From contig JAYUJP010000027.1 of the NCBI GenBank assembly GCA_043765155.1, positions 1,349 to 65,348 of the forward strand: a stretch of DNA of 64,000 nucleotides, in the 5' to 3' direction. This document shows positions 1,227-31,480 of this stretch, piece by piece. Origin of the DNA: a bacterium. GTDB taxonomy: Bacteria > Patescibacteriota > Minisyncoccia > Phycocordibacterales > UBA5272. Under the pieces are notes generated by a model, which was not told the origin of the DNA, searched no databases, and saw nothing but the letters and a program-made list of their open reading frames with translations. The first letter of the stretch is position 1; each line of letters opens with the position of its first letter. Position numbers and translations under genes: made by a program.

Positions 1227-4200
1227 ATGAAAACAAATACTCCTCAAAACTCAATACATCTCAAACCATCTCTCACCCAGATATATTTTAAGGTATTTGC
1301 TTTTGTAATCATCGTCTCTACTTTATTCTCTGGAATCTCCCCCGCTTTTGCCGCCCTCCCCCAGTCCCTCTCCTACACCGCCGTCCTCCGCGACTCCACT
1401 GGCACCCCCCTCACCGGCACCAACGACTTTAAAGTGCGCTATTACGACGCTAGTACAGCAGGTATACTAATGTATGAAGAAGAATTCTTAGCAACCACTA
1501 TAAACACAGGAGGTACCTTCTTTCTCCCTCTAGGTACAGGATTACCAATAAGTGGTACCTTCTCTAGTATTAACTTCAATTCTCCTGTATTCATTACTCT
1601 AAATACTAGAATAAACTTAACTCCTACCTATGACGGAGAGATGAACCCTCGTATACCACTAAGATCAGTCCCCTACGCCCTTAACTCACAAAAGCTAGAT
1701 GGTAGAATAGTCGGAGGAGCAAATGGTGTAGTAGCCTATGATGCGTCATCCACCATTAACACTAATGGGCTGAATGCGAGCGGCACCATTAACGCTCTTG
1801 GTAATGTAAACATAGCGGGGACCACAACTGCTAGTAGTATATTTTCTACACTGATTAATTCTATTACAGGGATATTTTCTAATTTGTTTTTGACGAGTGT
1901 AGCGACTGGTACAGCTTCTGACTCAGTACTGGTAAGGGATACAGTAACAGGAGAAGTAAAGCAAGATACATTTGCTAACCTACTATCATCAGCTATTACT
2001 AATACTATATCTTTTGCGACGAGTACTAATGTGCTGACGAGTAATGTGGGAGGGGTGATCTCTACAACAGCTATTCCAGCTGGTGCATCATGTATACCAG
2101 GGGGGTCTTCTCCACTAACCAATGAATGCCAGGGTACTAGTGCCTTACAAGCTAATACAACAGGCGTACGTAATTCTGCTTTTGGAGATCTTACTCTTGC
2201 TTCGAATACAGTAGGAGTTTCAAATACGGCCTTGGGTTATTCTGCGCTCGCTGCTAATGTATCAGGAAGTAACAACGGAGCATTTGGAGGATTCTCATTA
2301 TTTAAAAATGTTAGCGGTAACGGTAACTTGGCTAATGGTATTAGCTCACTTTTTAATAATGTAAGCGGGTCACGTAATACTGGAGTTGGTAATTTTTCGC
2401 TTACTAAACTTGTAACCGGAGTAGAAAATATAGCTATTGGATTCAACGCTGGGTTTAGCCAGCTTGGAGGTGACAGCAATATAATAATAGGTTCAAATCT
2501 TGATGTCCCAGATCTTAATGGATCTAATCAGTTAAATATTGGAGACATAATATATGGTGTTGGTGTATCGACTAGCGGTGGAGGAAATATTGGTATAGGT
2601 ACAACCACACCAAACGCGCAGTTCACAACAACAGGCTCAGTGCAATTTGCGGGAATTGGAAATAGCGCCACCAACACAAATATATTAACCGTTGACGCGG
2701 CTGGTAATGTAGAGACAAGAAGCATAGTCTCTCTGCTTGCTGCTTCAGCCAGCACAACAAATATAGTTAGCTTTGCAACCTCTACTAATATATTTACCAG
2801 TAATGTTAATGGGGTAGTGAGTACTACAAGTTTGGCGGGGTTAGTAAAAAACACAAAATGGTACTCTGAAAACTTAGCTGCACCTATAATTGCACCTGTT
2901 GCCACTGGGCTAGCATCTATCGCGGTTGGAGATGGAGCGGCTGCAACAGGACGAAATATATATGCATTTGGTGATGAGGCAGGTAGAGGTAGTAATAGTT
3001 CATATTCTAACTTTTTTGGATGGAGGGCTGGTAAAAATTCTGGCAATGGTGGTACATCCGAGAATAATTTCTTTGGTATAGCGGCAGGAGAAGGAGCAAC
3101 AAATGTTGCGGGTGGAAACTTTTTTGGAAGTAGGTCTGGAGGAGACGCTATAAATGCCAGCTTCTCAAATTTCTTTGGGGAAAGTGCAGGAGAGCTTGCG
3201 ATAAGGGCCAGCTTCTCAAATTTCTTTGGACGGGCTGCAGGATCTGGAGCAATTAACGCCAACAATTCGAACTTCTTTGGACTTGAAGCTGGTCGTAACG
3301 CGTCAAATGCATATGGTTCAAATTTTTATGGAGTAGGCGCAGGATATGAAGCAATTAATGCCAACAACTCTAATTTCCTTGGTACAGGTGCTGGTAATTT
3401 TGCTACAAATGCCGCTAACTCTATATTTATAGGTACCAATGCTGGAACAAGTGACCTCGTAGATAATACTACTGGTGGTACAAGTATACTCATAGGAAGA
3501 AATACAAACACTGGAGGATTTTCAAACTCTATCGCAATAGGTGAGAGTGCGATAAATGATAGGGTTAATCAATTCTTAGTGGGACCTAATTATTCCGACT
3601 TTTCATTTAGAGGAGTTAACTATGTCTTTCCTGCTAGTCAGGGAGCGACTGGTACAACCCTTGTGAATGATGGCTCAGGAGTATTAAGCTGGGCAGCTGC
3701 TGGAGCTAGCACTTCCACAAATGCCTGGAGTCTACTTGGCAATGCTGGGACTAACCCCGCAGTTAATTTTATAGGAACAACAGATGCGCAAGACTTTATC
3801 ATAAGGACAGATAATGTGCAGACAGGTAAAATAAGTGCAGATGGCACAGTTATATCTTTTGGGATAAATGCTGGAGTCGGCACCACTAATGCACTAAGCT
3901 CAAGTTTTATTGGCGTAAATTCTGGAAGCGGAGCAATAAACGCCTTTTTTTCAAACTTCTTTGGCCAAAATGCTGGTGCTAATGTTATTAACGCTAACAG
4001 ATCAAACTTTATTGGAATAAATGCCGGCAATGGTGCATCTGCTGCTCAGTACTCTAACTTGTTTGGATTTAACGCTGGAGTTGACGCCACTAATGCTATC
4101 CATTCTAACTTTATTGGTACTGGATCTGGACAAGATGCAATCAACTCGCAACGTTCTAACTTTATAGGATTTGATGCTGGTGCAGGAGCTCCAGCTGCAT

Positions 4201-7200
4201 CCAATTCAAACTTCTTTGGATCCAGTGCTGGATTTAATGCTTTTAACGCAAGTAGTTCTAACTTTATTGGTAATAGTGCTGGATTTGCAGCATCTAACGC
4301 TAACGCCTCAAACTTCTTTGGACCTGCTGCTGGATTTGGCGCGACTGGCGCAGATAACTCAAATTTTATCGGTGCTCAATCTGGACAGGACGCAATTAAT
4401 TCAAGATTTTCTAATTTTGTAGGGTATGCAGCCGGCTCGGGAGCTTTGAACGCAGATAATTCCAACTTTTTTGGCCAAAATGCGGGGTCTAATACAAATG
4501 GTGCGGCTAGTTCAAACTTCTTTGGATCCAGTGCTGGATTTGGTGCGACTGGCGCTGCTAATTCTAACTTTTTTGGTACCAATGCTGGAAATAGTTCTGC
4601 TAATGCTGGCAACTCTAACTTCTTTGGTCTGAGTGCTGGATTTTTTGCAATTAACGCAAATAATTCCAATTTCTTTGGTGCAAATGCTGGACTTGCTGCT
4701 GCTGACGCCGCCAACTCGAACTTCTTTGGACTTGAAGCTGGTAGTTACGCATCAAATGCATATGGTTCAAATTTTTATGGAGTAAGCGCAGGATACGGAG
4801 CCGTTAATGCTAATAATTCTAACTTCTTTGGTACTGGTGCTGGTAATATTGCTACAAATGCCGCTAATTCTATATTTATAGGTACCAATGCTGGAGCGAG
4901 TGACATTGTAGATAATACTGCTGGTGGTACAAGCATATTAATAGGTAGTGGCAGTAATACTGGCGGCTTCTCAAACTCTATTGCTCTCGGCGCTAATGCA
5001 GTTAATACCAAAACAAATCAATTCTTAGTCGGACCAGATTATTCTGACTTTTCATTCCGTGGAATTAATTACACTTTTCCAAGTGTTCAAGGAAATGCCG
5101 GTGATACATTGACCAATGATGGTACGGGAGTATTAAGCTGGTCAACTTTAACCGGTGGAGGAAGGCCGATTACCGCATCAAATGGTCTTACATTATTAGG
5201 GGTAGACGTGAAGCTGGGGGGAGCGCTTAGTCAGGATACTTCTATAACACAAGGCGCTTTTGATTTAAGTTTCGCTAGAAATGGTTATGAGCTTCAAAAT
5301 TCTAATGCGGCCCCATATCTTGGTATTGGCGGAGCTATAACTGCTAATAATTTTGTTGGTGCTCGTTATACTGATGCTACTAGCGACGTTCAAAATGGTG
5401 TAATACAATTTGGCGGTCCGCGCCTTGCGAGCTTAAGAAGTTATAATAATAGTTTTGGGTATGAGACCGACTCCTCAATTTATGCTTCTCAGTCTGGTCT
5501 AAATTTACTTTTTAATGATAGTAACTCGGTAAATACAAGCGCAAATGTTGATGTGAATGGTCTGATCGTAAGTACTAGTGATGTTACAAGTAGCAATACG
5601 GGATTTCTTGGTCTTACAAATTCGGGTACAGCAAATTTTACAGTATCTGGTCCTAGCATATCTAGCGGACTATCGCTCAATAATGTCTCCGGCTCAGTGA
5701 GGCTATCTCAGCAGATTTTTGGCACAACACAGTCTATGAACATAGTCTCTGGAGGTATAGAATTTGATACACAGTCTACAAATAGATTTCGTATAGAAAA
5801 TAACGGAGACTTAAAAGCATTTGCATATGGATCTGGCAGAAATGATACAAGTGTCAGTACGCCATTTAACTTTTTATATACTGACTCAACAGGAGTCTTA
5901 TCGTCAGCACCTATTTCACTACTCGGGGGTAATGCCAGCAGCAGTATTATAGCAAGTAACGGACTTAACGCATCTGGCACAAATATAAAACTCGGTGGTG
6001 TGCTAACTCAAAATACAAATATAAACTTTGCTACAAATACTCTCACCTTTGACCAGAGTAACTTAAATTCTCGTTTTAAAATAAAAGGAGCGAGTGGATA
6101 TTCTACCCCATCAAATAGAACCCAATCTCTTTTTGAGGCTGAGCATTATGCAAATGCTGGATTCTCGATAGAAAGTTTTGAAAGTGGCCCACTCCTCGCA
6201 AATAAACATGGGACCAAATTAAATTTTACCAATAATCTATCTAACCCCTCTCTTGATCCTCTGGGCTCGTATATTAGAGGTGATAATCTTACAGGTGACT
6301 TTGAGTTTGGCACTAATGCGGGAGAGTCCGTAACATTAGGATCAGGTGGAGTTAGCGTTAATTCAAATAGTTTTATTTATCTATTTGGTAGTGATATACA
6401 ATTATACTCGCCAATAGTAAATTTTAGTCAATTTGGTAGCACTAGAGATGATAGTGCCTCTACTACACCGTCTAATTTTCTATATACAGATATTAACGGC
6501 TCTTTAAAATCTGCGCCAGTATCACTACTCGGTGGTAACTCGACTAGCTCATGGTCTCTGCTTGGCAATGCTGGCACTAATCCTGCAACTACCTTTTTAG
6601 GTACTACAGATGCACAAGACTTATCTATCAGAACTAATAATACAGAAGTTGCAAGGTTTGGGCAAAATAATAATTTTGCATTTGGTGTTGGTGCTCAGGC
6701 TGTTAACTCAGATAGCATAGCTATGGGAGCAGGAGCAGGAGCAGGAGCAACTAATGCACCATTTTCTAACTTCTTTGGGTCTGGTGCTGGATTTGGAGCT
6801 ATAAATGCAGCTAACTCTATATTTATAGGTACAAATGCTGGTGCAAATGACGCAGTAAATAATACTCTTGGTGCCGATACAAGTATACTCATAGGTAACA
6901 ATACAAACACAGGAGGATTTTCAAATTCTATCGCACTCGGTGAGGGAGCGGTAAACACATCTGCAAATCAGCTTTACATTAGGAACGCGATTACTAATTT
7001 TAATCTAGCTGGAGTAAATTACAGTTTTCCAACTGTGCAAGGCGCTCTTAATACTACTCTGAGTAACGATGGAAATGGAAACTTAACCTGGGTTGCACCC
7101 GGAGCAGGATCTATCACAGCATCAAATGGACTTAACGCTGTCGGAGTAGATGTAAGACTGGGTGGTGCTTTAAACACCCCAACTACAATAAACGCAACTG

Positions 7201-9785
7201 GAACAAACGACTTAACCATTTCCGGTACGTCGTATTCAAATAGTACGGGACTGTTTTCGGTCAACAGATTTGCAGGCACCTCAAACGCTGGAGCTGCAAT
7301 ACAAGCCAATTCTACCGCTGGTGCTGGACTTAATATGCTACAAAATGTAGGAGGTAGATTTGATGCTGTTAGTTTTGCTAATGGAGCGGGTACTAATTAT
7401 GGAACCCTGAACACAGCTAGCTTGGGACAGTCTGATACCTTTGCTACAAATGTGGGATCTAGAAGTGTGGCATCTATGAGTATAGGTGGTGGTAGCGTAG
7501 GCCAGTTACGCGGAGCTGAGAATGTTTCTAGTATCACAAATGGATCCGCTGGTAGAGCTTTTGGATCTTTGAATGAAGTAAATTTACAAAATGGTACAAG
7601 TGTAAATGAAGCATATGGTGTATTTACTGCTCTGAGTAAGCCAAGTGGTGCAACAGTAGGTAGATACTCAGGCTTTATTATGGAGGATAATAATACTGGT
7701 GTCGCTAATAGAGCAGGTCTTGCCTTGGTCTCACTTTCTAGTGTAAATTATACTGGCGAATGGGGTATATATAATGCTCTGAATAGAAATAATGCAATTA
7801 ATGGATCACTGATGGTGGGATCTACCACAGCACCAACAGAAAGACTAGACGTAGCGGGTAATCTCAGACTAAGAGGTGCCTTTATGCCGGGCAATCAGGC
7901 TGGTGGAGTGGGGTCACTACTCATATCTCAGGGTCCTAACGTTGCGCCAATATGGTCCAGTACTTCTACACTCGGATTATTGTCTAGTGCAAATAATGGC
8001 CTAACAGTAAACCCGGCAGGCAATGCGCAGCTTGGTGGTGGTCTATTACAAGACACAACTATTATCAATAATAACTTTGCGCTAGATATTGGTACAGGTA
8101 TAAATGGTCTTAAGGTAGCAGCTAATGGGCAAGTGGGTATTGGAAATAATATTGGAGCTATTCCAGGTGCAACTCTCTTAGTAAAAGATACAGTGGCGGG
8201 ATTTGCCTCACTCAATGTAGTCGGAGGGACTTCTGGAGGAGGAGCAATTACTAGATTTATAAATGACACTGGAGCGACTTACTTAACTGGTCTATCAGGT
8301 TCAAATAATAGTGCGCTTGGACTAGGTAATTATATTATACGCGATCAAAATGCAGGATTAAACAGATTGGTAGTAGCCTCAAATGGTAATGTAGGAATAG
8401 GAGATTTTACAAATGTGAATCCAGTAGAAAAGCTATCTGTAGCTGGAAATATAAACATATCTTCTGGTAGTGCTTATATGCTTAATGGTGTGAATGTGTT
8501 AAGATCACAAACCGCTTTGAATAATATTTATGCTGGTCCAGCTGGAAATCTAACTGGTACAGGTCAATACAATACCGCTATAGGATATGATTCATTTAAT
8601 GTAAACACTACTGGACAGCAAAACACTGCGACCGGTTTTCATTCTATGAATGGTAACACCACAGGTTCATTTAACACTGCAAATGGTCTAAATTCACTGT
8701 ATTTCAACTCTACAGGGAGTAACAATAACGCATTTGGATATAATGCTCTCTTTAGAACAACTTCATCTGGAAATAATGCATTCGGTAATGCTGCTTTGCA
8801 AGAAAATGTAAGTGGGATAGATAATGTGGCTATGGGTAATTCAACATTATCATTTTCATTAGGAAATACTAACTCAGCTTTTGGTTCGGCAGCCGGCGCA
8901 CTTTTAGTAAACGGTAATAATAATACCTTCAGTGGCTACAAAGCTGGTTTTGCTCAAACAGCAGGTAGCAACAACTTGGTGCTTGGCGCAAATACGGATC
9001 TTGCAAACCTTACAGGTTCTAATCAGTTAAATATTGCAAATATTATTTTTGGTACAGGACTCACTGGTTCAGTTAGCGCACCGCTAGGTAATATAGGCCT
9101 CGGCACCACCACCCCCGCCGAGCGCCTTCAAGTCCTCGGCGACATCCGTATAGGTACAAGTGGTGTTAACGGCTGTCTCCAGAACTTTGCAGGTACGGCT
9201 ATAGCTGGTGTATGTAGTTCAGATGAAAACCTAAAGATAAATATACAAGATCTAGCTACTAGCACAATGGACAAATTCTCAAAATTAAGATTCGTCTCAT
9301 ATAACTGGAACAACACAGCAGGTGAATTATACAAAAAGGATACTACTGCCACCAATACGGGTATATTAGCGCAACAAGTAGAAGGTATATTCCCAGAACT
9401 AGTAACTACAGATAATAAAGGATACAAGGTAGTAGATATCTCAACTCTGTTTATGTATAGTATGCAAGTAACCAGAGACCTAATAAATAGATTAGACGCA
9501 GAAGTCATTAATCTTAAGAATATAGTAGCGAGCTCCCTCACCGCTGAGCGTATATATGTAAAGAGGGTAGAGGCGGAGGAGGTAATAACACAAAAGTTAT
9601 GTGTTAAAAGCGCGTGCGTGACCGAAACAGAATTTTTAGAAATTATAAATAATAGAAACAACACAAGCGCTAACAATAATATAAATACAAATACAAATAC
9701 AAATACAAATACAACAACAGATACTATGAGCACAAGTACTCAAGATGTACCAGCAGCTACTAGTACAGAAATAGTAATACCTTAA
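1227..9785 (+). CDS. Giant (2852 aa) secreted glycine-rich repeat fibre protein with a C-terminal intramolecular-chaperone (Peptidase S74 / endosialidase-chaperone-like) domain
   Basis: N-terminal signal peptide. About 30 tandem ~20-aa units of type SNFFGxxAGxxAxNAxx. Tail-fibre-like motifs WSLLGNAGTNPAVNFIGTTDAQD and NIGIGTTTPxxxLxVxG. C-terminal CSSDENLKINIQDL...LRFVSYNWNN...GILAQQVEGIFPELV...GYKVVDISTLFMYSMQ matches the S74 auto-cleaving chaperone (Ser-x4-Lys). Ends in an NTNTNT tail. Confidence 0.8.
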   Translation: MKTNTPQNSIHLKPSLTQIYFKVFAFVIIVSTLFSGISPAFAALPQSLSYTAVLRDSTGTPLTGTNDFKVRYYDASTAGILMYEEEFLATTINTGGTFFLPLGTGLPISGTFSSINFNSPVFITLNTRINLTPTYDGEMNPRIPLRSVPYALNSQKLDGRIVGGANGVVAYDASSTINTNGLNASGTINALGNVNIAGTTTASSIFSTLINSITGIFSNLFLTSVATGTASDSVLVRDTVTGEVKQDTFANLLSSAITNTISFATSTNVLTSNVGGVISTTAIPAGASCIPGGSSPLTNECQGTSALQANTTGVRNSAFGDLTLASNTVGVSNTALGYSALAANVSGSNNGAFGGFSLFKNVSGNGNLANGISSLFNNVSGSRNTGVGNFSLTKLVTGVENIAIGFNAGFSQLGGDSNIIIGSNLDVPDLNGSNQLNIGDIIYGVGVSTSGGGNIGIGTTTPNAQFTTTGSVQFAGIGNSATNTNILTVDAAGNVETRSIVSLLAASASTTNIVSFATSTNIFTSNVNGVVSTTSLAGLVKNTKWYSENLAAPIIAPVATGLASIAVGDGAAATGRNIYAFGDEAGRGSNSSYSNFFGWRAGKNSGNGGTSENNFFGIAAGEGATNVAGGNFFGSRSGGDAINASFSNFFGESAGELAIRASFSNFFGRAAGSGAINANNSNFFGLEAGRNASNAYGSNFYGVGAGYEAINANNSNFLGTGAGNFATNAANSIFIGTNAGTSDLVDNTTGGTSILIGRNTNTGGFSNSIAIGESAINDRVNQFLVGPNYSDFSFRGVNYVFPASQGATGTTLVNDGSGVLSWAAAGASTSTNAWSLLGNAGTNPAVNFIGTTDAQDFIIRTDNVQTGKISADGTVISFGINAGVGTTNALSSSFIGVNSGSGAINAFFSNFFGQNAGANVINANRSNFIGINAGNGASAAQYSNLFGFNAGVDATNAIHSNFIGTGSGQDAINSQRSNFIGFDAGAGAPAASNSNFFGSSAGFNAFNASSSNFIGNSAGFAASNANASNFFGPAAGFGATGADNSNFIGAQSGQDAINSRFSNFVGYAAGSGALNADNSNFFGQNAGSNTNGAASSNFFGSSAGFGATGAANSNFFGTNAGNSSANAGNSNFFGLSAGFFAINANNSNFFGANAGLAAADAANSNFFGLEAGSYASNAYGSNFYGVSAGYGAVNANNSNFFGTGAGNIATNAANSIFIGTNAGASDIVDNTAGGTSILIGSGSNTGGFSNSIALGANAVNTKTNQFLVGPDYSDFSFRGINYTFPSVQGNAGDTLTNDGTGVLSWSTLTGGGRPITASNGLTLLGVDVKLGGALSQDTSITQGAFDLSFARNGYELQNSNAAPYLGIGGAITANNFVGARYTDATSDVQNGVIQFGGPRLASLRSYNNSFGYETDSSIYASQSGLNLLFNDSNSVNTSANVDVNGLIVSTSDVTSSNTGFLGLTNSGTANFTVSGPSISSGLSLNNVSGSVRLSQQIFGTTQSMNIVSGGIEFDTQSTNRFRIENNGDLKAFAYGSGRNDTSVSTPFNFLYTDSTGVLSSAPISLLGGNASSSIIASNGLNASGTNIKLGGVLTQNTNINFATNTLTFDQSNLNSRFKIKGASGYSTPSNRTQSLFEAEHYANAGFSIESFESGPLLANKHGTKLNFTNNLSNPSLDPLGSYIRGDNLTGDFEFGTNAGESVTLGSGGVSVNSNSFIYLFGSDIQLYSPIVNFSQFGSTRDDSASTTPSNFLYTDINGSLKSAPVSLLGGNSTSSWSLLGNAGTNPATTFLGTTDAQDLSIRTNNTEVARFGQNNNFAFGVGAQAVNSDSIAMGAGAGAGATNAPFSNFFGSGAGFGAINAANSIFIGTNAGANDAVNNTLGADTSILIGNNTNTGGFSNSIALGEGAVNTSANQLYIRNAITNFNLAGVNYSFPTVQGALNTTLSNDGNGNLTWVAPGAGSITASNGLNAVGVDVRLGGALNTPTTINATGTNDLTISGTSYSNSTGLFSVNRFAGTSNAGAAIQANSTAGAGLNMLQNVGGRFDAVSFANGAGTNYGTLNTASLGQSDTFATNVGSRSVASMSIGGGSVGQLRGAENVSSITNGSAGRAFGSLNEVNLQNGTSVNEAYGVFTALSKPSGATVGRYSGFIMEDNNTGVANRAGLALVSLSSVNYTGEWGIYNALNRNNAINGSLMVGSTTAPTERLDVAGNLRLRGAFMPGNQAGGVGSLLISQGPNVAPIWSSTSTLGLLSSANNGLTVNPAGNAQLGGGLLQDTTIINNNFALDIGTGINGLKVAANGQVGIGNNIGAIPGATLLVKDTVAGFASLNVVGGTSGGGAITRFINDTGATYLTGLSGSNNSALGLGNYIIRDQNAGLNRLVVASNGNVGIGDFTNVNPVEKLSVAGNINISSGSAYMLNGVNVLRSQTALNNIYAGPAGNLTGTGQYNTAIGYDSFNVNTTGQQNTATGFHSMNGNTTGSFNTANGLNSLYFNSTGSNNNAFGYNALFRTTSSGNNAFGNAALQENVSGIDNVAMGNSTLSFSLGNTNSAFGSAAGALLVNGNNNTFSGYKAGFAQTAGSNNLVLGANTDLANLTGSNQLNIANIIFGTGLTGSVSAPLGNIGLGTTTPAERLQVLGDIRIGTSGVNGCLQNFAGTAIAGVCSSDENLKINIQDLATSTMDKFSKLRFVSYNWNNTAGELYKKDTTATNTGILAQQVEGIFPELVTTDNKGYKVVDISTLFMYSMQVTRDLINRLDAEVINLKNIVASSLTAERIYVKRVEAEEVITQKLCVKSACVTETEFLEIINNRNNTSANNNINTNTNTNTNTTTDTMSTSTQDVPAATSTEIVIP

Positions 9786-9787
9786 AT

Positions 9788-10450
9788 TTATATCATCAAG
9801 CTTTTTGGATCAATAGGTGTGTCATTATAGGCAACGATAGACCAAGGATTTGAGAAAAAGTTAAGAGGATTATATTCGAGTACTGTCAGCCCTGCATTGC
9901 TGGCTGGATTAAATATAGATAGCTTGACGTATTTTTCTACGCTCAGCTCCTTGCCGTATATAAGTACACACAAAAACATTTTTAAAAATATACCGTGAGT
10001 TATACATAGCGTCCTGTCGCTACTATTTTTAGCTAGAAAGTCTTTTAATCTTAAGGCTCTGTCTTTTAGCTCCGCAAAGTTCTCCTCGTCATCCCACCTC
10101 GCATCTTCAGCGTGAAAGCTTTTATCCATAAAGTTTATAGCCTCTGTTGTTATAGGGTCAAAGTATTTGTGTCCTATTATTTTGGTAGGATTTTTGCGTT
10201 CACCTAGTAGCGGTACATACTCGATATTTTTAATATTTAGGCTTTTGTTAACTTCATCACAGGTCTCCACAGCGCGCTGAAATGGACTACAAAATATTTT
10301 CTTTATATTAAAAGAGAGTAGTCTCTCACCTACTTTTTTGGCTTGGGCTATACCATTCACGCTTAGGCCACCAGCCTCACCCTGCCTTATCATGGCGGCA
10401 TTAAGCATAGTCTCACCGTGACGTATTATATAAATATTTCTAGTCAGCAT
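9788..10450 (-). CDS. Histidine phosphatase family protein (phosphoglycerate-mutase-like)
   Basis: N-terminal IIRHGET catalytic motif (RHG) and downstream conserved His. Confidence 0.7.
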   Translation of the reverse strand: MLTRNIYIIRHGETMLNAAMIRQGEAGGLSVNGIAQAKKVGERLLSFNIKKIFCSPFQRAVETCDEVNKSLNIKNIEYVPLLGERKNPTKIIGHKYFDPITTEAINFMDKSFHAEDARWDDEENFAELKDRALRLKDFLAKNSSDRTLCITHGIFLKMFLCVLIYGKELSVEKYVKLSIFNPASNAGLTVLEYNPLNFFSNPWSIVAYNDTPIDPKSLMI

Positions 10451-10624: not shown

Positions 10625-11881
10625 TTGTTCTCATGTGTTTTTGTGGATAAGACAAAGTTTTATATGTCTTTTATAATGTATAATATGAGTATGAATAAAA
10701 GTAAGAAACAGATATCTTTAAATAATTTTTTAAAAGTATTATTTGCTTTTTCAGTCTCTTTTTCTTTTGTATCTTTTGTAACTGCTCAGCAGACTCAGAA
10801 TGTCAATTCTAATTTTATATATTCACCTAGAACTCAGAATCTAAATGTTGTAGATAGTCTAGCCCTCAATATATACTGTAGCCTTTCTAAGGCTATTAGC
10901 CCAGCAAAAAGAGAAAAATGTTTTGTGTCTAATCAGAGTCAAAATACAAATCAAAATTTAAGTCAGCCCAATTCTAATAATCAAAATTTTGATATTTTAA
11001 ATAAAAACTTAGAAAATCAAGCAAGAGAAATACAAGAACTTAAAAACGCGCAAGTTAGTCAAGCAGAAGAGTTAAATAAAAAATTAGTAGAGTCTAATAA
11101 AAATAGTAAGCCCCTTAACTCAGTCGCGGGCAATACTATTATAAGATATGTCACTGATCCAAATTTTTCAAAAATAGGCAGATACAATACGGTAGTAGGA
11201 CAAAATAGCTTTGCTATTGGTAGCTATAATACCATAACAAGAGAGGCGTCTAATTCTGTTGTGATAGGCAGTAATATAATCAACACTACAGCAGGCTCGG
11301 TACAAATAGGAACAAATAATAAGACCAAGCTTTTTATCGGACGTGATGGATTTGTCTCAGTCGCAAATGGCAGCAGTAGCTTAGCCACAACTTCAGTTTC
11401 TGGTGAGCAGTTAAATGTTGCCGGCAAAGTGAGAGCAAGCGGCCTCGATGTATATTCGGCTTACGATATATCAGACACATTCCCAGCTGATGAGGCAGAT
11501 ATATTAGCGGGGCATATAGTGCAGTTTTCAGGCACCTCATATCCTTGGAATGGATATGAGCTTAATGGTATTATCAAGGCGACTAATCCAAAGAAAATAA
11601 TAGGGGTAGTCTCGGCTAGACCGGCGATAAATCTTGGAGTGGAGACAAAGGGGTTACCAGTAGCTTCAGCTGGACGCGCTCCAGTAAAGGTATCAGACGA
11701 AAACGGTAAAGTATTAAGGGGTGACAGAGTTACGTTATCAGCTACTAAGCCTGGACTTGGAGCCAAGCTTATTTCTGCAGGGCAAAGTGTCGGTATAGCG
11801 CTCTCAGATGCGAATGCAGAAGGTAATGTACTTATATTAGTTAAAAGCGAATACATAAATAATCCAGAATTTTATAAATAA
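10625..11881 (+). CDS. Secreted N/Q-rich coiled-coil plus beta-repeat protein (fibre/adhesin-like). The true start is probably the internal Met near 10688.
   Basis: Signal peptide (MSMNKSKKQISLNNFLKVLFAFSVSFSFVSFVTA). Low-complexity Q/N region. Gly/Ser/Thr-rich repeats resembling the neighbouring giant protein. Confidence 0.5.
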   Translation: MFSCVFVDKTKFYMSFIMYNMSMNKSKKQISLNNFLKVLFAFSVSFSFVSFVTAQQTQNVNSNFIYSPRTQNLNVVDSLALNIYCSLSKAISPAKREKCFVSNQSQNTNQNLSQPNSNNQNFDILNKNLENQAREIQELKNAQVSQAEELNKKLVESNKNSKPLNSVAGNTIIRYVTDPNFSKIGRYNTVVGQNSFAIGSYNTITREASNSVVIGSNIINTTAGSVQIGTNNKTKLFIGRDGFVSVANGSSSLATTSVSGEQLNVAGKVRASGLDVYSAYDISDTFPADEADILAGHIVQFSGTSYPWNGYELNGIIKATNPKKIIGVVSARPAINLGVETKGLPVASAGRAPVKVSDENGKVLRGDRVTLSATKPGLGAKLISAGQSVGIALSDANAEGNVLILVKSEYINNPEFYK

Positions 11882-12928: not shown

Positions 12929-13741
12929 ATGCAAGATTTAAAGTTAAACAAAAATTTAGAAAATCTTTACAAAGTTAGTTCAATACTCGTTATTATATTA
13001 TCAATAGTTGGATTACTATACGCTGTTAATATTTTTAGAGAAGGTAGGCTCATAGGAGCTAATGCTTCTAATACAATATCATTATCAGGTACTGGCAAGG
13101 TCACAGCTAAGCCGGACACAGCAACAATAACTTTTTCTGTGCGTGAACAGACTAAGCAGGCAAAGAAAACTGAATATGCTGATGAGGAAGATACCAAAGA
13201 GGTAAAAGAAAGTAAGGACAGAATTACAAAAAAGATAAATGTAGCATTAACAGATTTAAGCAAAATAGTAGACAAAAAAGATATAACAACCGAGACCTAC
13301 AATTCATACCCAAGATACTTTTATTATACAAATGGAGCGTCTGGCTTAATTGAAGGTTATGATGTATCACAAACAGTAAGTGTAAAAGTTATTGACATAA
13401 AAAACACTTCTAAAATTCTGGATATAATAAATAAAGCCGGTATAAGTGAGGTGTCAGGTCCAGATTACTACATTGAGAAAGACGAAGTTTTTAAAGATAA
13501 AGCAAGAGAAGATGCTATAAGTGAAGCAAAAAGAAAAGCTAATATTTTGGCCAAGCAATTGGGGGTCAGCGTACTGCGTATAGTTAGCTTTACAGAAGAT
13601 TCTAGTTATGCGCCAGTATTATACAGTGTGGAAAAATCAGACATCACAGGGAATGCCCAAGCTGCGTCAACAGAGCCATATTTACCAGAGGGAGAAAATG
13701 AAATCACTTCAAGCGTTACTATAACTTTTGAAATAAAATAA
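12929..13741 (+). CDS. SIMPL-domain (DUF541/BP26-like) periplasmic protein
   Basis: N-terminal TM/signal, then ISLSGTGKVTAKPDTATITFSV typical of SIMPL/BP26. Tandem paralog of the next gene. Confidence 0.65.
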   Translation: MQDLKLNKNLENLYKVSSILVIILSIVGLLYAVNIFREGRLIGANASNTISLSGTGKVTAKPDTATITFSVREQTKQAKKTEYADEEDTKEVKESKDRITKKINVALTDLSKIVDKKDITTETYNSYPRYFYYTNGASGLIEGYDVSQTVSVKVIDIKNTSKILDIINKAGISEVSGPDYYIEKDEVFKDKAREDAISEAKRKANILAKQLGVSVLRIVSFTEDSSYAPVLYSVEKSDITGNAQAASTEPYLPEGENEITSSVTITFEIK

Positions 13742-13764
13742 CCTAAATAATAAATAATAAAAAT

Positions 13765-14526
13765 ATGCAAGAAAAATTAAACAAAAACCTAAGTATAGTA
13801 TATTCAACAGCAGCAATGTTAATGATCACTCTTTGTGTGGTAGGGGTATTATACGCTATCAATCTTTTTAGAGAGGGTAGACTAATAGGGTCAAGTGCTT
13901 CTAACACTATCTCAGTGTCAGGTACTGGTAAGGTCACAGCCAAGCCTGATATTTCAAATATAACATTCACTGTGCGTGAGCAGGCCAAAGATAACAAAGA
14001 GGGACAAGATAAAATAGCCAAGAAAATTAGTATTGCACTCACTGATCTTAAAAAGATAATTGACAAAAAAGATATTAAGACCAATACTTATAATTCTTAT
14101 CCTAGATATTCATATCCTCTTAATGCAGCGGCCAAGCTAGACGGTTATGATGTAACTCAGAACGTAACAGTAAAAGTTAGAAATGTAGATGATGTAGCCA
14201 AAGTTTTGGATATAATAAGCAAAGCTGGTATTAATGAGGTATCAGGACCAGAATATTCTGTTGATAATGATAACAAGTACAAAGATGAAGCTAGAGAAAT
14301 GGCTATCAAGGATGCAAAAAGTAAAGCAGAAAAATTGGCTTCTCAGCTCGGTGTTAATCTTGTTCGTATAGTTAGCTTCTCAGAGAATGCTGGTGGGTAC
14401 GTACAGCCTATGTATATGATGAAGGCAGAGGGTAAAGTTATGTCCGACTCAGCCGTAGCACCTCAGTTACCAGTAGGTGAAAATGAGATAAGTTCAAATA
14501 TTAATATAATATTTGAGATAAAGTAA
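13765..14526 (+). CDS. SIMPL-domain (DUF541/BP26-like) periplasmic protein, paralog
   Basis: ISVSGTGKVTAKPDISNITFTV. Colinear similarity to 12929..13741 throughout. Confidence 0.65.
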   Translation: MQEKLNKNLSIVYSTAAMLMITLCVVGVLYAINLFREGRLIGSSASNTISVSGTGKVTAKPDISNITFTVREQAKDNKEGQDKIAKKISIALTDLKKIIDKKDIKTNTYNSYPRYSYPLNAAAKLDGYDVTQNVTVKVRNVDDVAKVLDIISKAGINEVSGPEYSVDNDNKYKDEAREMAIKDAKSKAEKLASQLGVNLVRIVSFSENAGGYVQPMYMMKAEGKVMSDSAVAPQLPVGENEISSNINIIFEIK

Positions 14527-17352: not shown

Positions 17353-18225
17353 TTACTTCTCCAAAATAGCTAACACTTTTTCGTTTATAACTATTTGCTC
17401 AGCGTAGTTTTTAATTCTAGCCTCATCTAGATTATTTTTATTTATCTCTTCTGGGTTCATATACATCATTACGCGCATCATTTCGGCCTCTACCTCTTCT
17501 TTTGTAACTTCTATTTTCTCAGCCCTTGCTATTTCTAATATTATTATCTGGGCTTTGTCTTTTTCTGTAAATCCTTCTGGCCACACTTCTTTTGCTTTTT
17601 CAGCATCAGTTCCTTGTATGCTAGTTATGATATTTTCTAATATGACGCTTCTAATTTTAGATTTTATCATCATTTCTTTTTCTAATTTTAGATTCTCTTT
17701 TATTTTACTTTCTATATCTGGAGTCTCTGTCTTCACTTTTTCATCAAGCTTTTCCATTATTTCCGCTACTTGCTCAGCTTCTGTTTTGATTTCCTTTTCT
17801 TCTCCGATTTTTGCTGCAGCTTCTTTTACGCTAGCGGCACTTATTTTTTTATAATCAGGCATTGTAAATTCTGGATATACAGCAACATGCGCGTGATAGA
17901 CAAAGTCTGCGTCTTTTTCAAGCTTAACTACATGTATATGTGGCTCGGCTATTGGCTTAATATTATTTTTGCTATGCTCCTCTATCATTATCTTTGGATA
18001 TGACTCATTGATGGCCACGTTCGCCATCTCTTCTAATATCGCTGACTGACCATATTTTGCAATCACTGCATCCTCAGGAGCCATACCTTTTCTAAATCCG
18101 CTTATTTCTATTTCGGCCTGTACGGCTTTAAATGCTTTACTCCATAGCTTGGCAAAATCTGCCGCTAATATTGTTACTTCTAATTCTACTTTACTATTTT
18201 TCTCTTTAGTTATTTTGTGTGTCAT
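17353..18225 (-). CDS. tig: Trigger factor, short form lacking a PPIase domain
   Basis: N-terminal ribosome-binding signature GFRKGMAP (GFRxGxxP). N-domain similarity to Tig. Only 290 aa. Confidence 0.65.
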   Translation of the reverse strand: MTHKITKEKNSKVELEVTILAADFAKLWSKAFKAVQAEIEISGFRKGMAPEDAVIAKYGQSAILEEMANVAINESYPKIMIEEHSKNNIKPIAEPHIHVVKLEKDADFVYHAHVAVYPEFTMPDYKKISAASVKEAAAKIGEEKEIKTEAEQVAEIMEKLDEKVKTETPDIESKIKENLKLEKEMMIKSKIRSVILENIITSIQGTDAEKAKEVWPEGFTEKDKAQIIILEIARAEKIEVTKEEVEAEMMRVMMYMNPEEINKNNLDEARIKNYAEQIVINEKVLAILEK

Positions 18226-26906: not shown

Positions 26907-28604
26907 ATGCTAAGCCCACAAGAATTAGAAGACAAAAATAGAATCACATATTTTGGTGTGACTGACTTTCGCGGCATACAGGAAAAATTTGGCATTAAGG
27001 CAGAAGACAGAACGCGTCACATGTACGTGATAGGCAAGACTGGTATGGGTAAAAGTACCATGCTCGAGAATATGGCCATACAAGATATTCAGAACGGCGA
27101 AGGTATATGCTTTATTGATCCGCATGGTACCACCGCCGAAAAACTTTTAAAATATGTACCCGCTGATCGTATACACGATGTAGTCTACTTTGCGCCATTT
27201 GATACAAAGTATCCAATGGGTTTAAATATATTGGAGCATGTTGATGAGGATTATAGGCACCTTGTAGCTTCTGGGCTTATGGATACATTTAAAAAAGTTT
27301 TCGGTGAGGATGTATTTTCAGGGCGTATGGTGTATTTGCTCAATAACGCTATATTGTCACTACTTGAAAATGAAGGCGAGAGTATGATGGGTATTAACAG
27401 AATATATGCGGACAAAGATTATAGAAAAAAGATAATAAGTAATGTTAAGGACCCAGCATTGCTCGCCTTTTGGAATGAAGAGTTCGCAAAGTATGAGGAC
27501 AAATATGTAAAAGAGGCCAGCGCTGCAATACAAAATAAAATAGGGCAATTTATAATGACGCCAATAGTTAGAAATATTGTCGGACAAAAACATACAAGCT
27601 TTGACATACGTAAAATGATGGACGAGAGGAAAATATTAATATGTAACTTTTCAATAGGGCAGACAGGTTCTGAAAATGTTAACCTGATCGGGTCATTACT
27701 AATAACAAAGATATACTTAGCGGCTATGAGTCGGGCTAATTTAAAAGAGGATGAGCTTAAAAATAGCCCGCCGTTCTATTTTTATGTGGACGAATTTCAA
27801 AATTTTGTTAATGATAGCTTTGCCCAGATATTGTCACAGTCAAGAAAGTATAATCTTGGCCTAGTCATAGCTCATCAATATGTCGAGCAGCTGAGCGACA
27901 CTGTAAAGGCGGCTGTATTTGGTAATGTTGGATCTATGATATCTTTTAGAGTTGGCGCTACTGATGCTGAGCTGCTTGAAAAGGAGTATGCGCCGCAGTT
28001 CACAGCTGACGATATTGTTAATCTTGGAGCTAGGCAGATATATCTTAGGTTATCAATTGACGGCGTCGGGTCCAAGCCATTTTCAGGCCGTACTATGCCG
28101 CCAATCGAGAATCCAGAAGATAATTATGTACCAGCTGTTGTCGCTACTAGTAGGGCAATATATGCAAGGTCCAAGCCTGACGTCCAAGAAGAAGTTAAAA
28201 ATTGGTATGAGCCTGTTGTAAAAAGAGTATCGCCAAATGAAAATATAAATAACACAAATACAAACTTTGCAGAAAAAAGAATACAAGATAAAACAGAATT
28301 TAAAAAAAGTGATGTAAGTGAGTACAAGAAAGAGGAATATAAAAAAGAAAGTAAAATAAAAGAAGAAGTAAAAGTCTCTTACCCGCAAACTTTTGTTGAG
28401 AAAAAACAAGATAATAAAAGTAGCCCACTTCGTGAAGCATTGCAGTCAGCTATGAAAGTAGATGTAAAAAAAGAGAAAGAAAACGAAGAAGTAAAAAAAG
28501 TTAAAATTAATATAGACGAAGCCAAGAACACGTATACTGATATATTTGGAGATATAAAATTAGATCAAGAAAAGTTTAAAAAATTACTAGATCTACAAGA
28601 ATAG
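26907..28604 (+). CDS. VirD4/TraG-type (T4SS coupling protein-like, DUF87/TraM-recognition) P-loop ATPase, soluble form with a K/E-rich C-terminal tail
   Basis: Walker A IGKTGMGKST. Walker B FYFYVDEFQNF. Conserved HQ motif (LVIAHQY) downstream of Walker B. No N-terminal TM. Confidence 0.55.
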   Translation: MLSPQELEDKNRITYFGVTDFRGIQEKFGIKAEDRTRHMYVIGKTGMGKSTMLENMAIQDIQNGEGICFIDPHGTTAEKLLKYVPADRIHDVVYFAPFDTKYPMGLNILEHVDEDYRHLVASGLMDTFKKVFGEDVFSGRMVYLLNNAILSLLENEGESMMGINRIYADKDYRKKIISNVKDPALLAFWNEEFAKYEDKYVKEASAAIQNKIGQFIMTPIVRNIVGQKHTSFDIRKMMDERKILICNFSIGQTGSENVNLIGSLLITKIYLAAMSRANLKEDELKNSPPFYFYVDEFQNFVNDSFAQILSQSRKYNLGLVIAHQYVEQLSDTVKAAVFGNVGSMISFRVGATDAELLEKEYAPQFTADDIVNLGARQIYLRLSIDGVGSKPFSGRTMPPIENPEDNYVPAVVATSRAIYARSKPDVQEEVKNWYEPVVKRVSPNENINNTNTNFAEKRIQDKTEFKKSDVSEYKKEEYKKESKIKEEVKVSYPQTFVEKKQDNKSSPLREALQSAMKVDVKKEKENEEVKKVKINIDEAKNTYTDIFGDIKLDQEKFKKLLDLQE

Positions 28605-28665
28605 TATTTAAAAATTATTAGAGAAATTAATCCTCCTGCGCTAAAGCTTCGGAGGATAAGAAATT

Positions 28666-30075
28666 ATGAAAAAGAATTTATTATTTATTTTAGTGGGCAT
28701 ATTTTTTATAAATATTATTTTTGTAAAAAGTATTTTCGCTTTGCAGATTAGCGAGATTATGTATGACCCCGCGGGTAGCGACACCGGTAATGAGTGGATA
28801 GAGTTATATAATGATACGGGTAGCAGTATTAACCTAACCACTTATAAATTTTTTGAAAATAATGTTAATCACGGCATAACTGCAAATCAAGGAGGTAGTA
28901 GTATTAGTGCTGGCGAATATGTAGTGTTAGCTGATAATCCTACTAACTTTCTGGCGCAGCATGCAGGATATGTTGGTAAAATATTTGACAGTGCTTTTTC
29001 ACTTTCAAATAGCGGCGAATATTTAGAGATGCGAGACGCTAGTAATATTAACTTGTTTTCTGTAACCTATATTACAAATAACGACGCAAATGGTACCGGA
29101 GGAACTTTAAATTATATTGCAGGAGCTACCTCGACCTGGCAAGTTTTTATAGAGTCTCCAGGAGTAGTGTCACCGCAAAACGCTGTACAAAATAATTCTG
29201 CTAATGCTACCAGCAGCAACTCTACCTCTACGCCTAGCGCTACAACTACTAGCTCAAGCGCTACAAATACAACAACAAATACAGGTGCTACTAATTTTTA
29301 CAGCTCAGGTTATACAAATAAGACTTATACCCTTGGTGATCTTAATATGCTAACCCCAAAAGAAATATGGACTGTGGCTGGTGCCAATACCTACTTTTTT
29401 GTTAAGCCTATAGATTCAAAAAAGAATACAGTGCCTAGTAATACTTATTGGTCATTTGGTGATGGGGCAGAAGGTCTTGGCTCTACTACCACCCACAGAT
29501 ATTATAATGCGGGGTATTATACTGCTTTTGTCGAGAGTGAGATTAGTAATGCCTATGGTATTGAGCGTATAGCGGTAAATGTAGCAAGTCCGGACATATC
29601 AATAAGTGAAATTGGGGATAATTATATTATTATCAAAAATAATAGTAGCACAGAATTAAATATTGGAGGATTTATTATTGGTAGCGATCAGGGATTTTTT
29701 AAGCTATCGCGTCACCTTATTTTAAAAGAAAATTCTGAGCTAAAAATAGACGGTAGAGTAATGGGATTTACAAATCTTACCAACCCTAAAATATTATCTT
29801 CTGATATGGCTAACATATCTGTATATAAGAATAAAGCTAATATAAATCAAGAAATAAAATCAGAAATCCCTAATGCCACTTCTACCTTACAGATAAATAA
29901 AAAAGTCATATTGTCTAAAAATTATCTTTATAAAAATAATCAGTACAAAAAAGACTTAAACCCAAAAGAAAAATCTACAAGCTCTGTAGCATCACTCGCC
30001 GCTAATATAACTCCACCTGTGGACATTACACCTATCAAAAAGGTGAAAAATTGGTTATACTGGTTATATGAATAA
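28666..30075 (+). CDS. Secreted lamin-tail-domain (LTD) protein with a PKD-like domain
   Basis: Signal peptide. LTD motif ISEIMYDPAGSDTGNEWIELYN, and a second LTD-like copy. PKD-like WSFGDGAEGLGSTTTHRYYNAGYYTAFV. Confidence 0.65.
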   Translation: MKKNLLFILVGIFFINIIFVKSIFALQISEIMYDPAGSDTGNEWIELYNDTGSSINLTTYKFFENNVNHGITANQGGSSISAGEYVVLADNPTNFLAQHAGYVGKIFDSAFSLSNSGEYLEMRDASNINLFSVTYITNNDANGTGGTLNYIAGATSTWQVFIESPGVVSPQNAVQNNSANATSSNSTSTPSATTTSSSATNTTTNTGATNFYSSGYTNKTYTLGDLNMLTPKEIWTVAGANTYFFVKPIDSKKNTVPSNTYWSFGDGAEGLGSTTTHRYYNAGYYTAFVESEISNAYGIERIAVNVASPDISISEIGDNYIIIKNNSSTELNIGGFIIGSDQGFFKLSRHLILKENSELKIDGRVMGFTNLTNPKILSSDMANISVYKNKANINQEIKSEIPNATSTLQINKKVILSKNYLYKNNQYKKDLNPKEKSTSSVASLAANITPPVDITPIKKVKNWLYWLYE

Positions 30076-31480
30076 AATTAAATTAAGCCTATTTTGCTTG
30101 TGTCTTTTTACAGCAGCTTTTTCTTATAATGCGTATGCTGCTAATTGGTGGGATGTTGGATACTCGCAGGGAGTTACTGTGCAGAGTAGTACTCAGAGTC
30201 AAGTTATAATACCTGAGACTAATATATCTACTAATCCTAGCACCTCCAATAATTCAAATACAAATTCTACTACAAATATAAGTACGACCCCTCTAAAAAT
30301 TATAAGTTATGATGTAGAGGGTGACGCTAATGGTAACAATATAAGAGATGAGGTTGATGGTATAATATCAAGTCTAGTATCTCAATATAATTTTGACCTA
30401 AAGCAAAAAAGGTCTTTGGAGCAGATAGCTAGGTCCTATCAGTATGTGCTTATATTTGCTCCTAATAGTGTGAGCTCTGCTTTTCAAGTTAATATAAGAG
30501 ATGTGGCCGCTACAAAGTGTGCTGAGCAGAGGCTACCTGCCAGCACACTTGACCTTGTTGTAGAAAAAATAGAAGCAGCAACCCTTAATACTCCTCAAAA
30601 GAGAGCGGCATACGATGTTTATACAAACTTTTTAGATGAAAATAGTCAGGGAGTTAGCAGCAATTCTTCTTGTGAGGACGAATTTTCTGGGTCTGGTGCA
30701 AACCCTAATAATGGAGGACCTATTACTTTGGGTGAGCAGTCTTTGCCTTGCCTAGTACTGAACCAGTTTATGGAAATAGGTAGCTCAGGTCAGCAAGTTA
30801 TCAAGCTTCAGACCTTTCTAGTATTATCAGGTAATATGTCAGTGTGGCCAACTGGATATTTTGGAGGTAATACAGCCTTTGCTGTCAAAAATTTCCAAAA
30901 CAAATACGGCATAGATAGCAGCAGATCATGGGTTGGTCCTAGTACTAGGGCAAAAGTAGCTGAGACAACCTGTAACGGAGACCCTAGTGCAATAGCTTCA
31001 GCTCGTAATGGTTTTAGTGTTAAAAAGTATGTAGCCCCTAAAAAAGTAGTATACAAAAAGCCAGCAATTAAGACTGTGTCTGAGACTACAACAATAGAGA
31101 TAGCAACTACAACTATTGAGACATCAACTATTTTTGTAGATAATACTAGCCTCGCTGTACTATCTAATACGTCTGGGACTTTTGATACAAGAAGAAACCC
31201 GATCAATGCACTTTACTTTACAGTAAAAGCCGACACAAAAAGAGACGAGTTATATGTATGTACCGAGAGTAAGTTAAATTCAAATTGTTTTGATCAAAGT
31301 TCATATACACTAGTTAGGCAAAAGTATGACAGTACTACCTACGACAGTATAGCTAGCAACGATAGATGGATATTTAATATATATTATAATCAAAATACTT
31401 GGGGTAATACAGGAGGAAAAATATATTTTAAAAATGGCACCGGCGGAGTCCCGAGTGTATATAGTGTGAACGTAAGATAA
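30068..31480 (+). CDS. Secreted protein with a peptidoglycan-binding (PG_binding_1) domain
   Basis: Signal peptide. GQQVIKLQTFLVLSG...GYFGGNTAFAVKNFQNKYGI. 8-nt overlap with the upstream gene. Confidence 0.55.
   Translation: MNKIKLSLFCLCLFTAAFSYNAYAANWWDVGYSQGVTVQSSTQSQVIIPETNISTNPSTSNNSNTNSTTNISTTPLKIISYDVEGDANGNNIRDEVDGIISSLVSQYNFDLKQKRSLEQIARSYQYVLIFAPNSVSSAFQVNIRDVAATKCAEQRLPASTLDLVVEKIEAATLNTPQKRAAYDVYTNFLDENSQGVSSNSSCEDEFSGSGANPNNGGPITLGEQSLPCLVLNQFMEIGSSGQQVIKLQTFLVLSGNMSVWPTGYFGGNTAFAVKNFQNKYGIDSSRSWVGPSTRAKVAETTCNGDPSAIASARNGFSVKKYVAPKKVVYKKPAIKTVSETTTIEIATTTIETSTIFVDNTSLAVLSNTSGTFDTRRNPINALYFTVKADTKRDELYVCTESKLNSNCFDQSSYTLVRQKYDSTTYDSIASNDRWIFNIYYNQNTWGNTGGKIYFKNGTGGVPSVYSVNVR

Follow-up and report, generated by a model that had tools for sequence, protein, structure and literature searches.

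We analyzed a 64-kb stretch of DNA from a Patescibacteria bacterium (NCBI GenBank assembly GCA_043765155.1, contig JAYUJP010000027.1), hereafter called the window, whose coordinates are used throughout. The subject of this work is the gene at 1227..9785 (+), for which the original prediction, made from the letters of the window, had proposed a giant secreted fibre protein that ends in a phage-type S74 chaperone. An 8.6-kb gene for a protein of 2852 amino acids (aa) had been called there, and this is what we found: a single ATG-initiated open reading frame (ORF) of 2852 codons and a stop, by far the longest of the region. All features of the gene that are given below lie on the same strand. Glycine, asparagine, serine, alanine and threonine together make up 59% of the protein, and it contains only six cysteines. 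We describe the C-terminal chaperone, the leader and the repeats, compare them with relatives and with the genomic surroundings, and then weigh what the protein may do; the findings are best read as a trimeric surface fibre.

Searched against Pfam, the whole protein gave a single match, Peptidase_S74 (PF13884), at aa 2665-2727 (9219..9407). The match was significant and covered the full length of the profile (positions 1-58 of 58; E = 7.5e-13; 49 bits, gathering cutoff 22). The domain opens with the putative catalytic dyad Ser2665-x4-Lys2670 (SDENLK, 9219..9236, within the string SSDENLK that starts at aa 2664). This dyad had been pointed out before, and it held up well, as both Ser2665 and Lys2670 were invariant across the alignment of 62 sequences (the protein and 61 homologues). 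SDENLK aligned with ADLRAK of the MyRF ICA domain (7dc3) and with SDERHK, which starts the chaperone of phage GA-1 (3gud). When the family profile was compared with the PDB, we obtained matches to the long tail fibre 6f45 (E = 7e-16), 8jov (2e-15), MyRF (8e-11) and 3gud (1e-6), while a search of the PDB with the sequence of the whole protein returned the MyRF ICA domain only.

The predicted structure agreed with the profile. In the AlphaFold2 monomer model of the last 452 residues, the head-type coils described below reached a per-residue confidence (pLDDT) of 84-94 and the chaperone, with its Pfam core, of 85-96. The best 11 Foldseek matches in the PDB were all intramolecular chaperones, namely those of MyRF (7dc3), GA-1 (3gud) and endoNF (3gw6). 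The target TM score for 7dc3 was 0.62-0.68, and the alignments to 7dc3, 3gud and 3gw6 spanned 117-174 columns, well past the Pfam core. Considering the profile, the invariant dyad and the predicted fold together, we regard the assignment of the C-terminal domain as an S74 intramolecular chaperone as confirmed.

An extra tail of about 75 aa had been noticed after the S74 domain and left unexplained. By our count there are 125 residues past the Pfam core (2728-2852). Most of them appear extra because the chaperone has a helical stalk that the Pfam model, with its 58 positions, does not cover; this stalk is a 57-residue alpha-helix at aa 2738-2794 (9438..9608) that is present in the AlphaFold2 model and in the Foldseek matches. 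Approximately 85 of the 125 residues are part of a normal chaperone of about 150 aa, and to this extent the tail is accounted for. The parts specific to this subfamily are a Cys-x(n)-Cys turn with an amphipathic helix, and an extension rich in Thr, Pro, Glu and Asn. Here the former consists of Cys2792-x4-Cys2797 and, in the AlphaFold2 model, a short amphipathic helix at aa 2800-2813 (KLCVKSACVTETEFLEIINN; 9600..9665). The latter is a disordered low-complexity tail of 37 residues (aa 2816-2852; 9672..9782; pLDDT < 50), which lies downstream of the cleavage serine and therefore should depart with the chaperone. Its (NT)n stretch is encoded by a perfect in-frame hexanucleotide, AATACA x6, detected with TRF at 9678-9714 (+). 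Slippage at this repeat would alter the length of the tail and keep the frame. The tails of relatives are T/P/E-rich and 40-120 aa long, and in P0362, a close relative, a Pro-rich tail stands in place of (NT)n.

The six cysteines form three close pairs, 289/301, 2650/2663 and 2792/2797 (2091-2129, 9174-9215 and 9600-9617, respectively), a spacing that, for a protein which is exported, points to three local disulfide bonds. The second and third pairs bracket the chaperone and are both hallmarks of the subfamily. Cys2650 and Cys2663, just before the cleavage serine, belong to the subfamily consensus and were found in 56 of the 64 S74-bearing proteins with SNFFG repeats (see below), against 11 of 38 in a broad S74 set. 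For the pair behind the S74 domain the respective counts were 55 of 64 and 0 of 38. We considered whether the Cys2650-Cys2663 loop might be hypervariable and bind a receptor, and rejected this idea, as the loop is conserved across the subfamily. That the Cys-Cys module after S74 might be an independent sorting domain was not supported either: in the 120 proteins of the SNFFG set it never occurred without the dyad, and the sole apparent exception, L007b, keeps a degenerate S74.

At the opposite end of the protein we called a Sec-type signal peptide, aa 1-42 (1227..1352), with predicted cleavage after AFA (AFA-A). The call is heuristic and was not made with SignalP. The leader carries Lys2, Lys13 and Lys22; apart from aa 16-45, no segment of the protein is strongly hydrophobic, and AFA-A stands at 40-43. 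The junction ..SPAFA-A(V/L)PQS.SY is also present in the relatives P0362-P0364, so that the signal peptide that had been claimed is borne out both by the layout of the leader and by the conserved junction. In the database copy (P0361, 2771 aa) the start of the same protein is placed at Met82, and all landmarks are offset by 81 residues. This call excludes 1227-1469 of the window and with it the signal peptide and the first part of the N-terminal domain; because of it an exact-sequence lookup of the giant gave no match.

Next to the leader, from aa 43 to about aa 250 (1353..1976), lies a conserved N-terminal domain, which is presumably cell-proximal and has the consensus IxYQGxLxDxxGxPLxG...GEMxPRxPLxSVPYAL. 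In the library search 2102 proteins matched it (E<=1e-3), nearly all of them starting 20-60 residues from their own N-terminus. Thirteen of the 38 N-domain proteins of at least 600 aa end in S74, and others among the 38 carry Laminin_G_3 (lectin-like), collagen, YadA_head, SprB, LPP or Peptidase_G2 domains. Judged from these sequences, the N-terminal domain serves as a single chassis on which shafts and tips are exchanged.

Between the two ends the protein is dominated by repeats. SNF[FIYLV]G recurs in exact 17-residue steps with the consensus SNFFGxxAGxxAxNAxx, and the identity at lag 17 was 0.42-0.49 in the arrays vs 0.12-0.13 in shuffles (z = 12-19). The repeats named in the original prediction thus exist and exceed chance by a wide margin, although each unit has 17 aa and not about 20 aa. 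Also, a single repeat block of about 2.5 kb was not what we observed. There are approximately 35 units (10 + 21 + 4; about 595 aa, roughly 1.8 kb in total), and they are split over three arrays: array 1 with about 10 coils (aa 577-746; 2955..3464), array 2 with 21 coils (aa 875-1231; 3849..4919) and array 3 with about 4 coils (aa 1813-1880; 6663..6866). One complete SNFFG unit (aa 812-1310), modelled with AlphaFold2 as a monomer, gave a predicted TM score of 0.77 and a pLDDT of 94-98 in the array, with one short strand per 17 residues and 21 turns. According to this model the SNFFG array is a single-chain beta-solenoid. Its nearest structural neighbours include the heads of trimeric autotransporter adhesins, and many tailspikes were matched as well.

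A second class of 17-aa repeats, the head type, has the family consensus NTAxGxxALxxNTTGxx and comprises about 20 units at aa 302-454 and 2432-2618. The proximal ones (about 9 coils; lag-17 z = 10.7) form, with a neck and the capping loop NIGIGTTTPNAQF, a module at aa 302-483 (2130..2675) which matches aa 2430-2648 internally; PHROG 4636 (tail spike) matches aa 266-483 (E = 1.7e-11). The distal ones (about 11 coils; 8520..9080) are followed by the capping loop NIGLGTTTPAERLQV at aa 2622-2636 (9090..9134). The protein is internally concatenated, with the head and neck module at both ends and an array-end module (TSILIG..NTGGFSNSIALG..NQFLVGP..GVLSW) in three copies at about aa 752-822, 1235-1305 and 1885-1957, the second of them at 4920..5156. 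Residues 719-799 match 1202-1282 with 80% identity and also match 1834-1900. Segments with WSLLGN and ITASNGL recur along the protein, and the motifs quoted earlier were recovered, WSLLGNAGTNP at aa 834 and 1776 and NIG[IL]GTTTP at aa 454 and 2622. The central region, aa 1311-2431 (5157..8519), is interrupted by array 3 and has no family assignment; it contains ITASNGL..LGGAL segments at aa 1315, 1574 and 1963 and three further capping-loop-like motifs at aa 2197, 2303 and 2391. In NCBIfam there was no family match for the giant or for the neighbour proteins.

Relatives of these parts are numerous. The C-terminal 452 aa had >3569 homologues, many of them on Mb-scale contigs; in Acidobacteriota, Bacteroidales, Beijerinckiaceae and other groups they go by the name 'tail fiber domain-containing protein'. 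Many homologues are also listed with the family PF26696. S74 domains are therefore common on cellular proteins, and the rarity implied earlier is wrong. For the SNFFG unit we found 570 homologues, mostly of 389-870 aa, the majority of which have S74 too, and proteins with both SNFFG and S74 already bear the same name in Candidatus Pacebacteria and Arenimonas. Long versions in species-representative genomes were found in Nomurabacteria (1878 aa) and Saccharibacteria (1001 aa), and one in Parcubacteria (>2650 aa) runs off its contig. Besides P0361, the library of N-domain proteins holds giants of 2428, 3478, 1823 and 1846 aa. The giants keep both termini, and their internal modules differ in number and order. 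In the Patescibacteria metagenome-assembled genome JAZKJG010000001.1 an S74 giant of 2204 aa and a second giant of 2482 aa lie 4 kb apart. The second giant (L007:10713-18161, +) has the same N-terminal domain, SNFFG arrays, the Cys-Cys turn and an acidic tail. Its S74 is degenerate (SDESLA, Lys to Ala) and has no Pfam match, and it may be a naturally non-cleaving variant.

We conclude that the protein belongs to a known kind, the cellular phage-fibre-like adhesins matured by S74, of which it is a very long and modular representative. In the literature we found no paper that pairs Peptidase_S74 with Patescibacteria, and nothing specific on tail fibres or giant adhesins of the candidate phyla radiation. 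As far as our searches show, this kind of protein has database names in Patescibacteria, but no description in the literature searched.

The gene is cellular, as had been claimed, and lies in a Patescibacteria genome without a prophage around it. The window holds trigger factor, NusA, MetRS, DnaK, ClpB and FtsX, and five tRNAs are dispersed over it. The identity of NusA to a 'Patescibacteria group bacterium' protein is 75%, and to proteins of Paceibacterota and Nomurabacteria it is 60-62%. The neighbours of the gene are a PG_binding_1 protein (7-675) and a histidine phosphatase (9788-10450, -), both of which had been named before and were confirmed, as well as a small membrane-anchored protein and two SIMPL proteins. 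In the flanks there was no terminase, portal, capsid, tail or integrase gene, and there was no second S74 anywhere in the window. The GC content at codon position 3 (GC3) is 0.267, the level of the housekeeping genes, while at position 2 it is 0.506, with the excess coming from Gly, Ala, Ser and Thr codons. Recent horizontal transfer, considered on GC contents of 0.41 vs 0.34, was rejected for this reason: GC3 is host-like and the excess sits at codon position 2.

Some other genes of the window should be mentioned. The ORF at 10625-11881 (+) had been described as a second fibre-like secreted protein; it has a signal-peptide-like leader, but its fibre likeness is weak (UspA1 head, E = 0.02). 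The start is more likely the ATG at 10691 (MNKSKKQ...), and the product consists of a coiled-coil-like stretch, the short and weak likeness to the UspA1 head and a C-terminal domain without assignment. Neither the IxYQG N-terminal domain nor S74 was found in it. The tandem SIMPL/DUF541 paralogues (12929-14526, +; 270 and 253 aa) lie just upstream of tRNA-Leu and tRNA-His. Trigger factor (17353-18225, -) has just 290 aa, with the Trigger_N and Trigger_C matches abutting at residues 139-147, and its central PPIase domain appears to be missing. Further along (26907-31480, +), the gene for a TrwB/VirD4-like coupling ATPase (26907-28604) precedes two genes for secreted proteins, a Lamin-tail-domain/PKD protein (28666-30075) and a PG_binding_1 protein (30068-31480); these may belong to a surface apparatus for type IV secretion or DNA uptake.

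The individual modules of the giant also have relatives in phages. The head, capping-loop and S74 part matched annotated tail fibres in 50 isolated-phage records with 25-40% identity. The SNFFG array was near-absent in isolated phages, with one partial match. In IMG/VR viral contigs, scanned with a single SNFFG protein as the query, it was found at 39 loci with 35-59% identity, and ORFs beside 11 of the 39 matched terminase, baseplate wedge, tail, virion structural, DNA polymerase, primase or helicase families. These contigs (L012-L050; e.g. L022:6027-12161 and L050:738-9098) have a low GC content (0.28-0.43). The SNFFG protein of L043 has a Bacteroidota-style signal peptide, and that contig may be cellular. 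The phage SNFFG proteins are tail-fibre-like, 224-2786 aa long and contain up to 48 SNFxG 17-aa units, and 32 of 41 had no signal peptide in a crude test. We detected no S74 domain and no Cys-Cys tail in them, and the dyad pattern gave three stray matches. They share with the giant the array essentially alone and not the flanking modules. The cellular proteins thus join a phage shaft module and a phage tip and chaperone module to a Sec leader and an N-domain of cellular type.

From these data we think it rather probable that the product of the gene is a Sec-exported fibre which a Patescibacteria bacterium displays on its surface, which is put together from modules of phage tail fibres and which is used as an adhesin for partner cells. 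Of the earlier interpretation as a whole, the S74 chaperone, the cellular gene and the solenoid repeats stood; the rarity of S74 and the unexplained tail did not. Trimerisation, cleavage, surface display, orientation, anchoring, length and adhesive function we infer by analogy with characterised fibres. The 42-aa leader would take the chain across the membrane, and the N-terminal domain (aa 43 to about 250) would remain cell-proximal. The chaperone of about 150 aa (S74 core, long helix, Cys-Cys turn and short helix) would emerge last and trimerise. It would then nucleate the folding of the fibre in the C-to-N direction, through the distal head-type coils, the capping loops and the three SNFFG beta-solenoid shafts. 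Subsequently the chaperone would remove itself by autoproteolysis with Ser2665 and Lys2670, the disordered tail of about 37 aa leaving with it, and the mature distal tip would end at the Cys2650-Cys2663 loop.

The mature fibre would have about 2620 residues per chain, with the N-terminal end anchored and the head and capping-loop region distal. Its length may be on the order of 100-200 nm, if it is scaled from the Bdellovibrio protein Bd3182, which measures about 550 Å for about 780 residues (PMC10769870). It could act as a receptor-binding adhesin towards the surface of a partner or host cell, like the mosaic adhesive trimer (MAT) fibres of Bdellovibrio, and attachment to a host is plausible by that analogy.

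Several points weigh against this picture. Both structure models, of the last 452 residues and of aa 812-1310, are monomers. We looked for a cell-wall anchor and recognised no LPXTG, SLH or C-terminal transmembrane segment, and given this absence the fibre could be released from the cell. When the neighbour genes were compared between the window and the loci L004-L010, none was conserved, and therefore no operon partner can be proposed. Finally, the central region of about 1100 aa has no Pfam, NCBIfam or PDB match and could be enzymatic.

The last point leads to one of the rival explanations, a secreted or surface-bound tailspike or endosialidase-type depolymerase, in which the central beta-helical region would cleave a polysaccharide of the partner cell surface or of the matrix and S74 would be a folding chaperone only. 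The approximately 1100 central residues without assignment leave room for such an activity, but no catalytic family was detected, and we consider this explanation improbable. Equally unlikely, in our opinion, is a general structural or protective surface fibre, one that serves as an envelope coat, in biofilm matrix or in aggregation and has no specific partner receptor. A large, repetitive, secreted protein rich in Gly, Asn, Ser, Ala and Thr would suit this role, no receptor-binding tip domain (lectin, TNF-like) was identified at the mature C-terminus, and the loop before the cleavage site is conserved and not variable (TITTGTGIA-type in many relatives). However, close relatives keep the termini and shuffle the internal modules, and the N-domain family swaps tips; this pattern is typical of receptor-binding proteins. 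Moreover, the nearest characterised analogues are prey-binding fibres (PMC10769870). A virion tail fibre of a prophage or prophage remnant, although each recognisable module has relatives in phage tail fibres, is effectively excluded by the conserved Sec signal peptide (absent by the crude test from 32 of the 41 phage SNFFG proteins, which also have no S74 domain or Cys-Cys tail), by flanks that hold PG-binding, histidine phosphatase, SIMPL, tRNA, trigger factor and NusA genes and no phage genes, by a GC3 equal to that of the housekeeping genes and by the presence of one S74 only in 64 kb.

The reading of the protein as an adhesive surface fibre bears on how the ultrasmall Patescibacteria recognise and grip partner cells. 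In Saccharibacteria the players described for partner binding are type IV pili, a type IV secretion system and a few lectin-like adhesins (PMC10633639; PMC12206443). A giant fibre matured by S74 is a concrete candidate to be added to them, and giant, rapidly rearranging fibre genes recur in several Patescibacteria lineages. What is known of S74 domains themselves is unchanged; the protein offers a candidate for partner-cell recognition and no new mechanism. The MAT concept would be extended to a phylum outside the list of PMC10769870, and the 17-aa SNFFG solenoid is documented as a shaft module common to cells and uncultured phages.

A wider proposal, which we put forward as a tentative speculation, is that Patescibacteria have domesticated the receptor-binding hardware of phages. 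SNFFG shafts, shared with uncultured phages at about 50% identity, would have been joined to a Sec leader together with a head, a capping loop and an S74 tip of phage type, and very long, partner-selecting fibres would be the outcome. Shuffling of modules (the relatives range from 1823 to 3478 aa) would then drive the evolution of episymbiont host range, possibly via ongoing exchange with phages, and the Cys-Cys turn and tail would have a role of their own. If this were true, the turn and tail of the released chaperone might keep it soluble or tethered during passage through the wall.

We compared the protein with four known systems. The first are the trimeric autotransporter adhesins (YadA, UspA1, EibD, CbpF), to which it had been likened as trimeric-adhesin-like. 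As a structural analogy this is fair with regard to the solenoid, but the protein does not belong to that family. It has no YadA beta-barrel anchor and no match to the YadA_head profile of Pfam, its repeat period is 17 aa, and its C-terminus consists of S74, a helix and a disordered tail. Membership of the type Vc autotransporters was rejected, as there was no PF03895 match. Patescibacteria are generally described as having no outer membrane. The protein would therefore work like the head and stalk of such an adhesin while standing outside the family.

The second system comprises the CIMCD chaperones of phages (K1F endoNF, 3gw6; GA-1 gp12, 3gud; 6f45) and the ICA domain of MyRF (7dc3). The likeness includes the profile, the Ser-x4-Lys dyad, the GxIAQEV..P.LV core and the long C-terminal helix, and in all of them the domain directly follows a beta-helical stalk with a capping loop. 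The protein described here is predicted to be exported by a cell, whereas the known ones are built into a virion (phage) or the endoplasmic reticulum membrane (MyRF). It also differs in the Cys pairs that flank the domain and in the disordered Asn/Thr-rich extension.

The closest parallel in overall layout is offered by the MAT fibres of Bdellovibrio bacteriovorus, whose S74 subgroup includes Bd3182 (Caulton et al. 2024, PMC10769870). Self-cleavage of Bd3182 takes place at the serine of SDxxxK and is blocked by S782A; MAT fibres are located on the surface of the predator and in the invasion vesicle (PMC10769870). Both families are cellular, and in both a signal peptide is followed at once by a conserved N-terminal domain, the N-domains being compared by layout only. 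Both have a long beta-rich fibre, capping-loop motifs and a C-terminal S74 with the SDxxxK dyad, and both are split into S74 and non-S74 members with swapped tips. The capping-loop motif occurs here at five sites of the IG.GTT.P...L.V type (aa 455, 2197, 2303, 2391 and 2623; e.g. IGLGTTTPAERLQV), which match the published MAT/MyRF consensus V-G-G/N-pi-x-x-P-x-x-x-L (PMC10769870) approximately and are one residue longer. In contrast to the MAT fibres, which typically have about 1000 aa and at most 1915 aa in the MAT-like list, a list that takes in Omnitrophica and the FCB group and not Patescibacteria (PMC10769870), the protein has 2852 aa. Three single-chain solenoid arrays with the 17-aa SNFFG unit form its shaft, and its chaperone carries in addition the Cys-x4-Cys turn and the low-complexity tail. 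For Bd3182 there is proof of cleavage, trimerisation and surface location, whereas here they are predicted.

The last comparison is with the database entries named 'tail fiber domain-containing protein'. Hundreds of these proteins share with the giant the SNFFG arrays, the array-end module, the Cys pair, S74 and the Cys-Cys tail. The entries listed are 389-870 aa long and consist of a single unit, while the protein of this window combines three units with two head and neck modules and about 1100 unassigned residues, and just a handful of relatives of comparable length were found.

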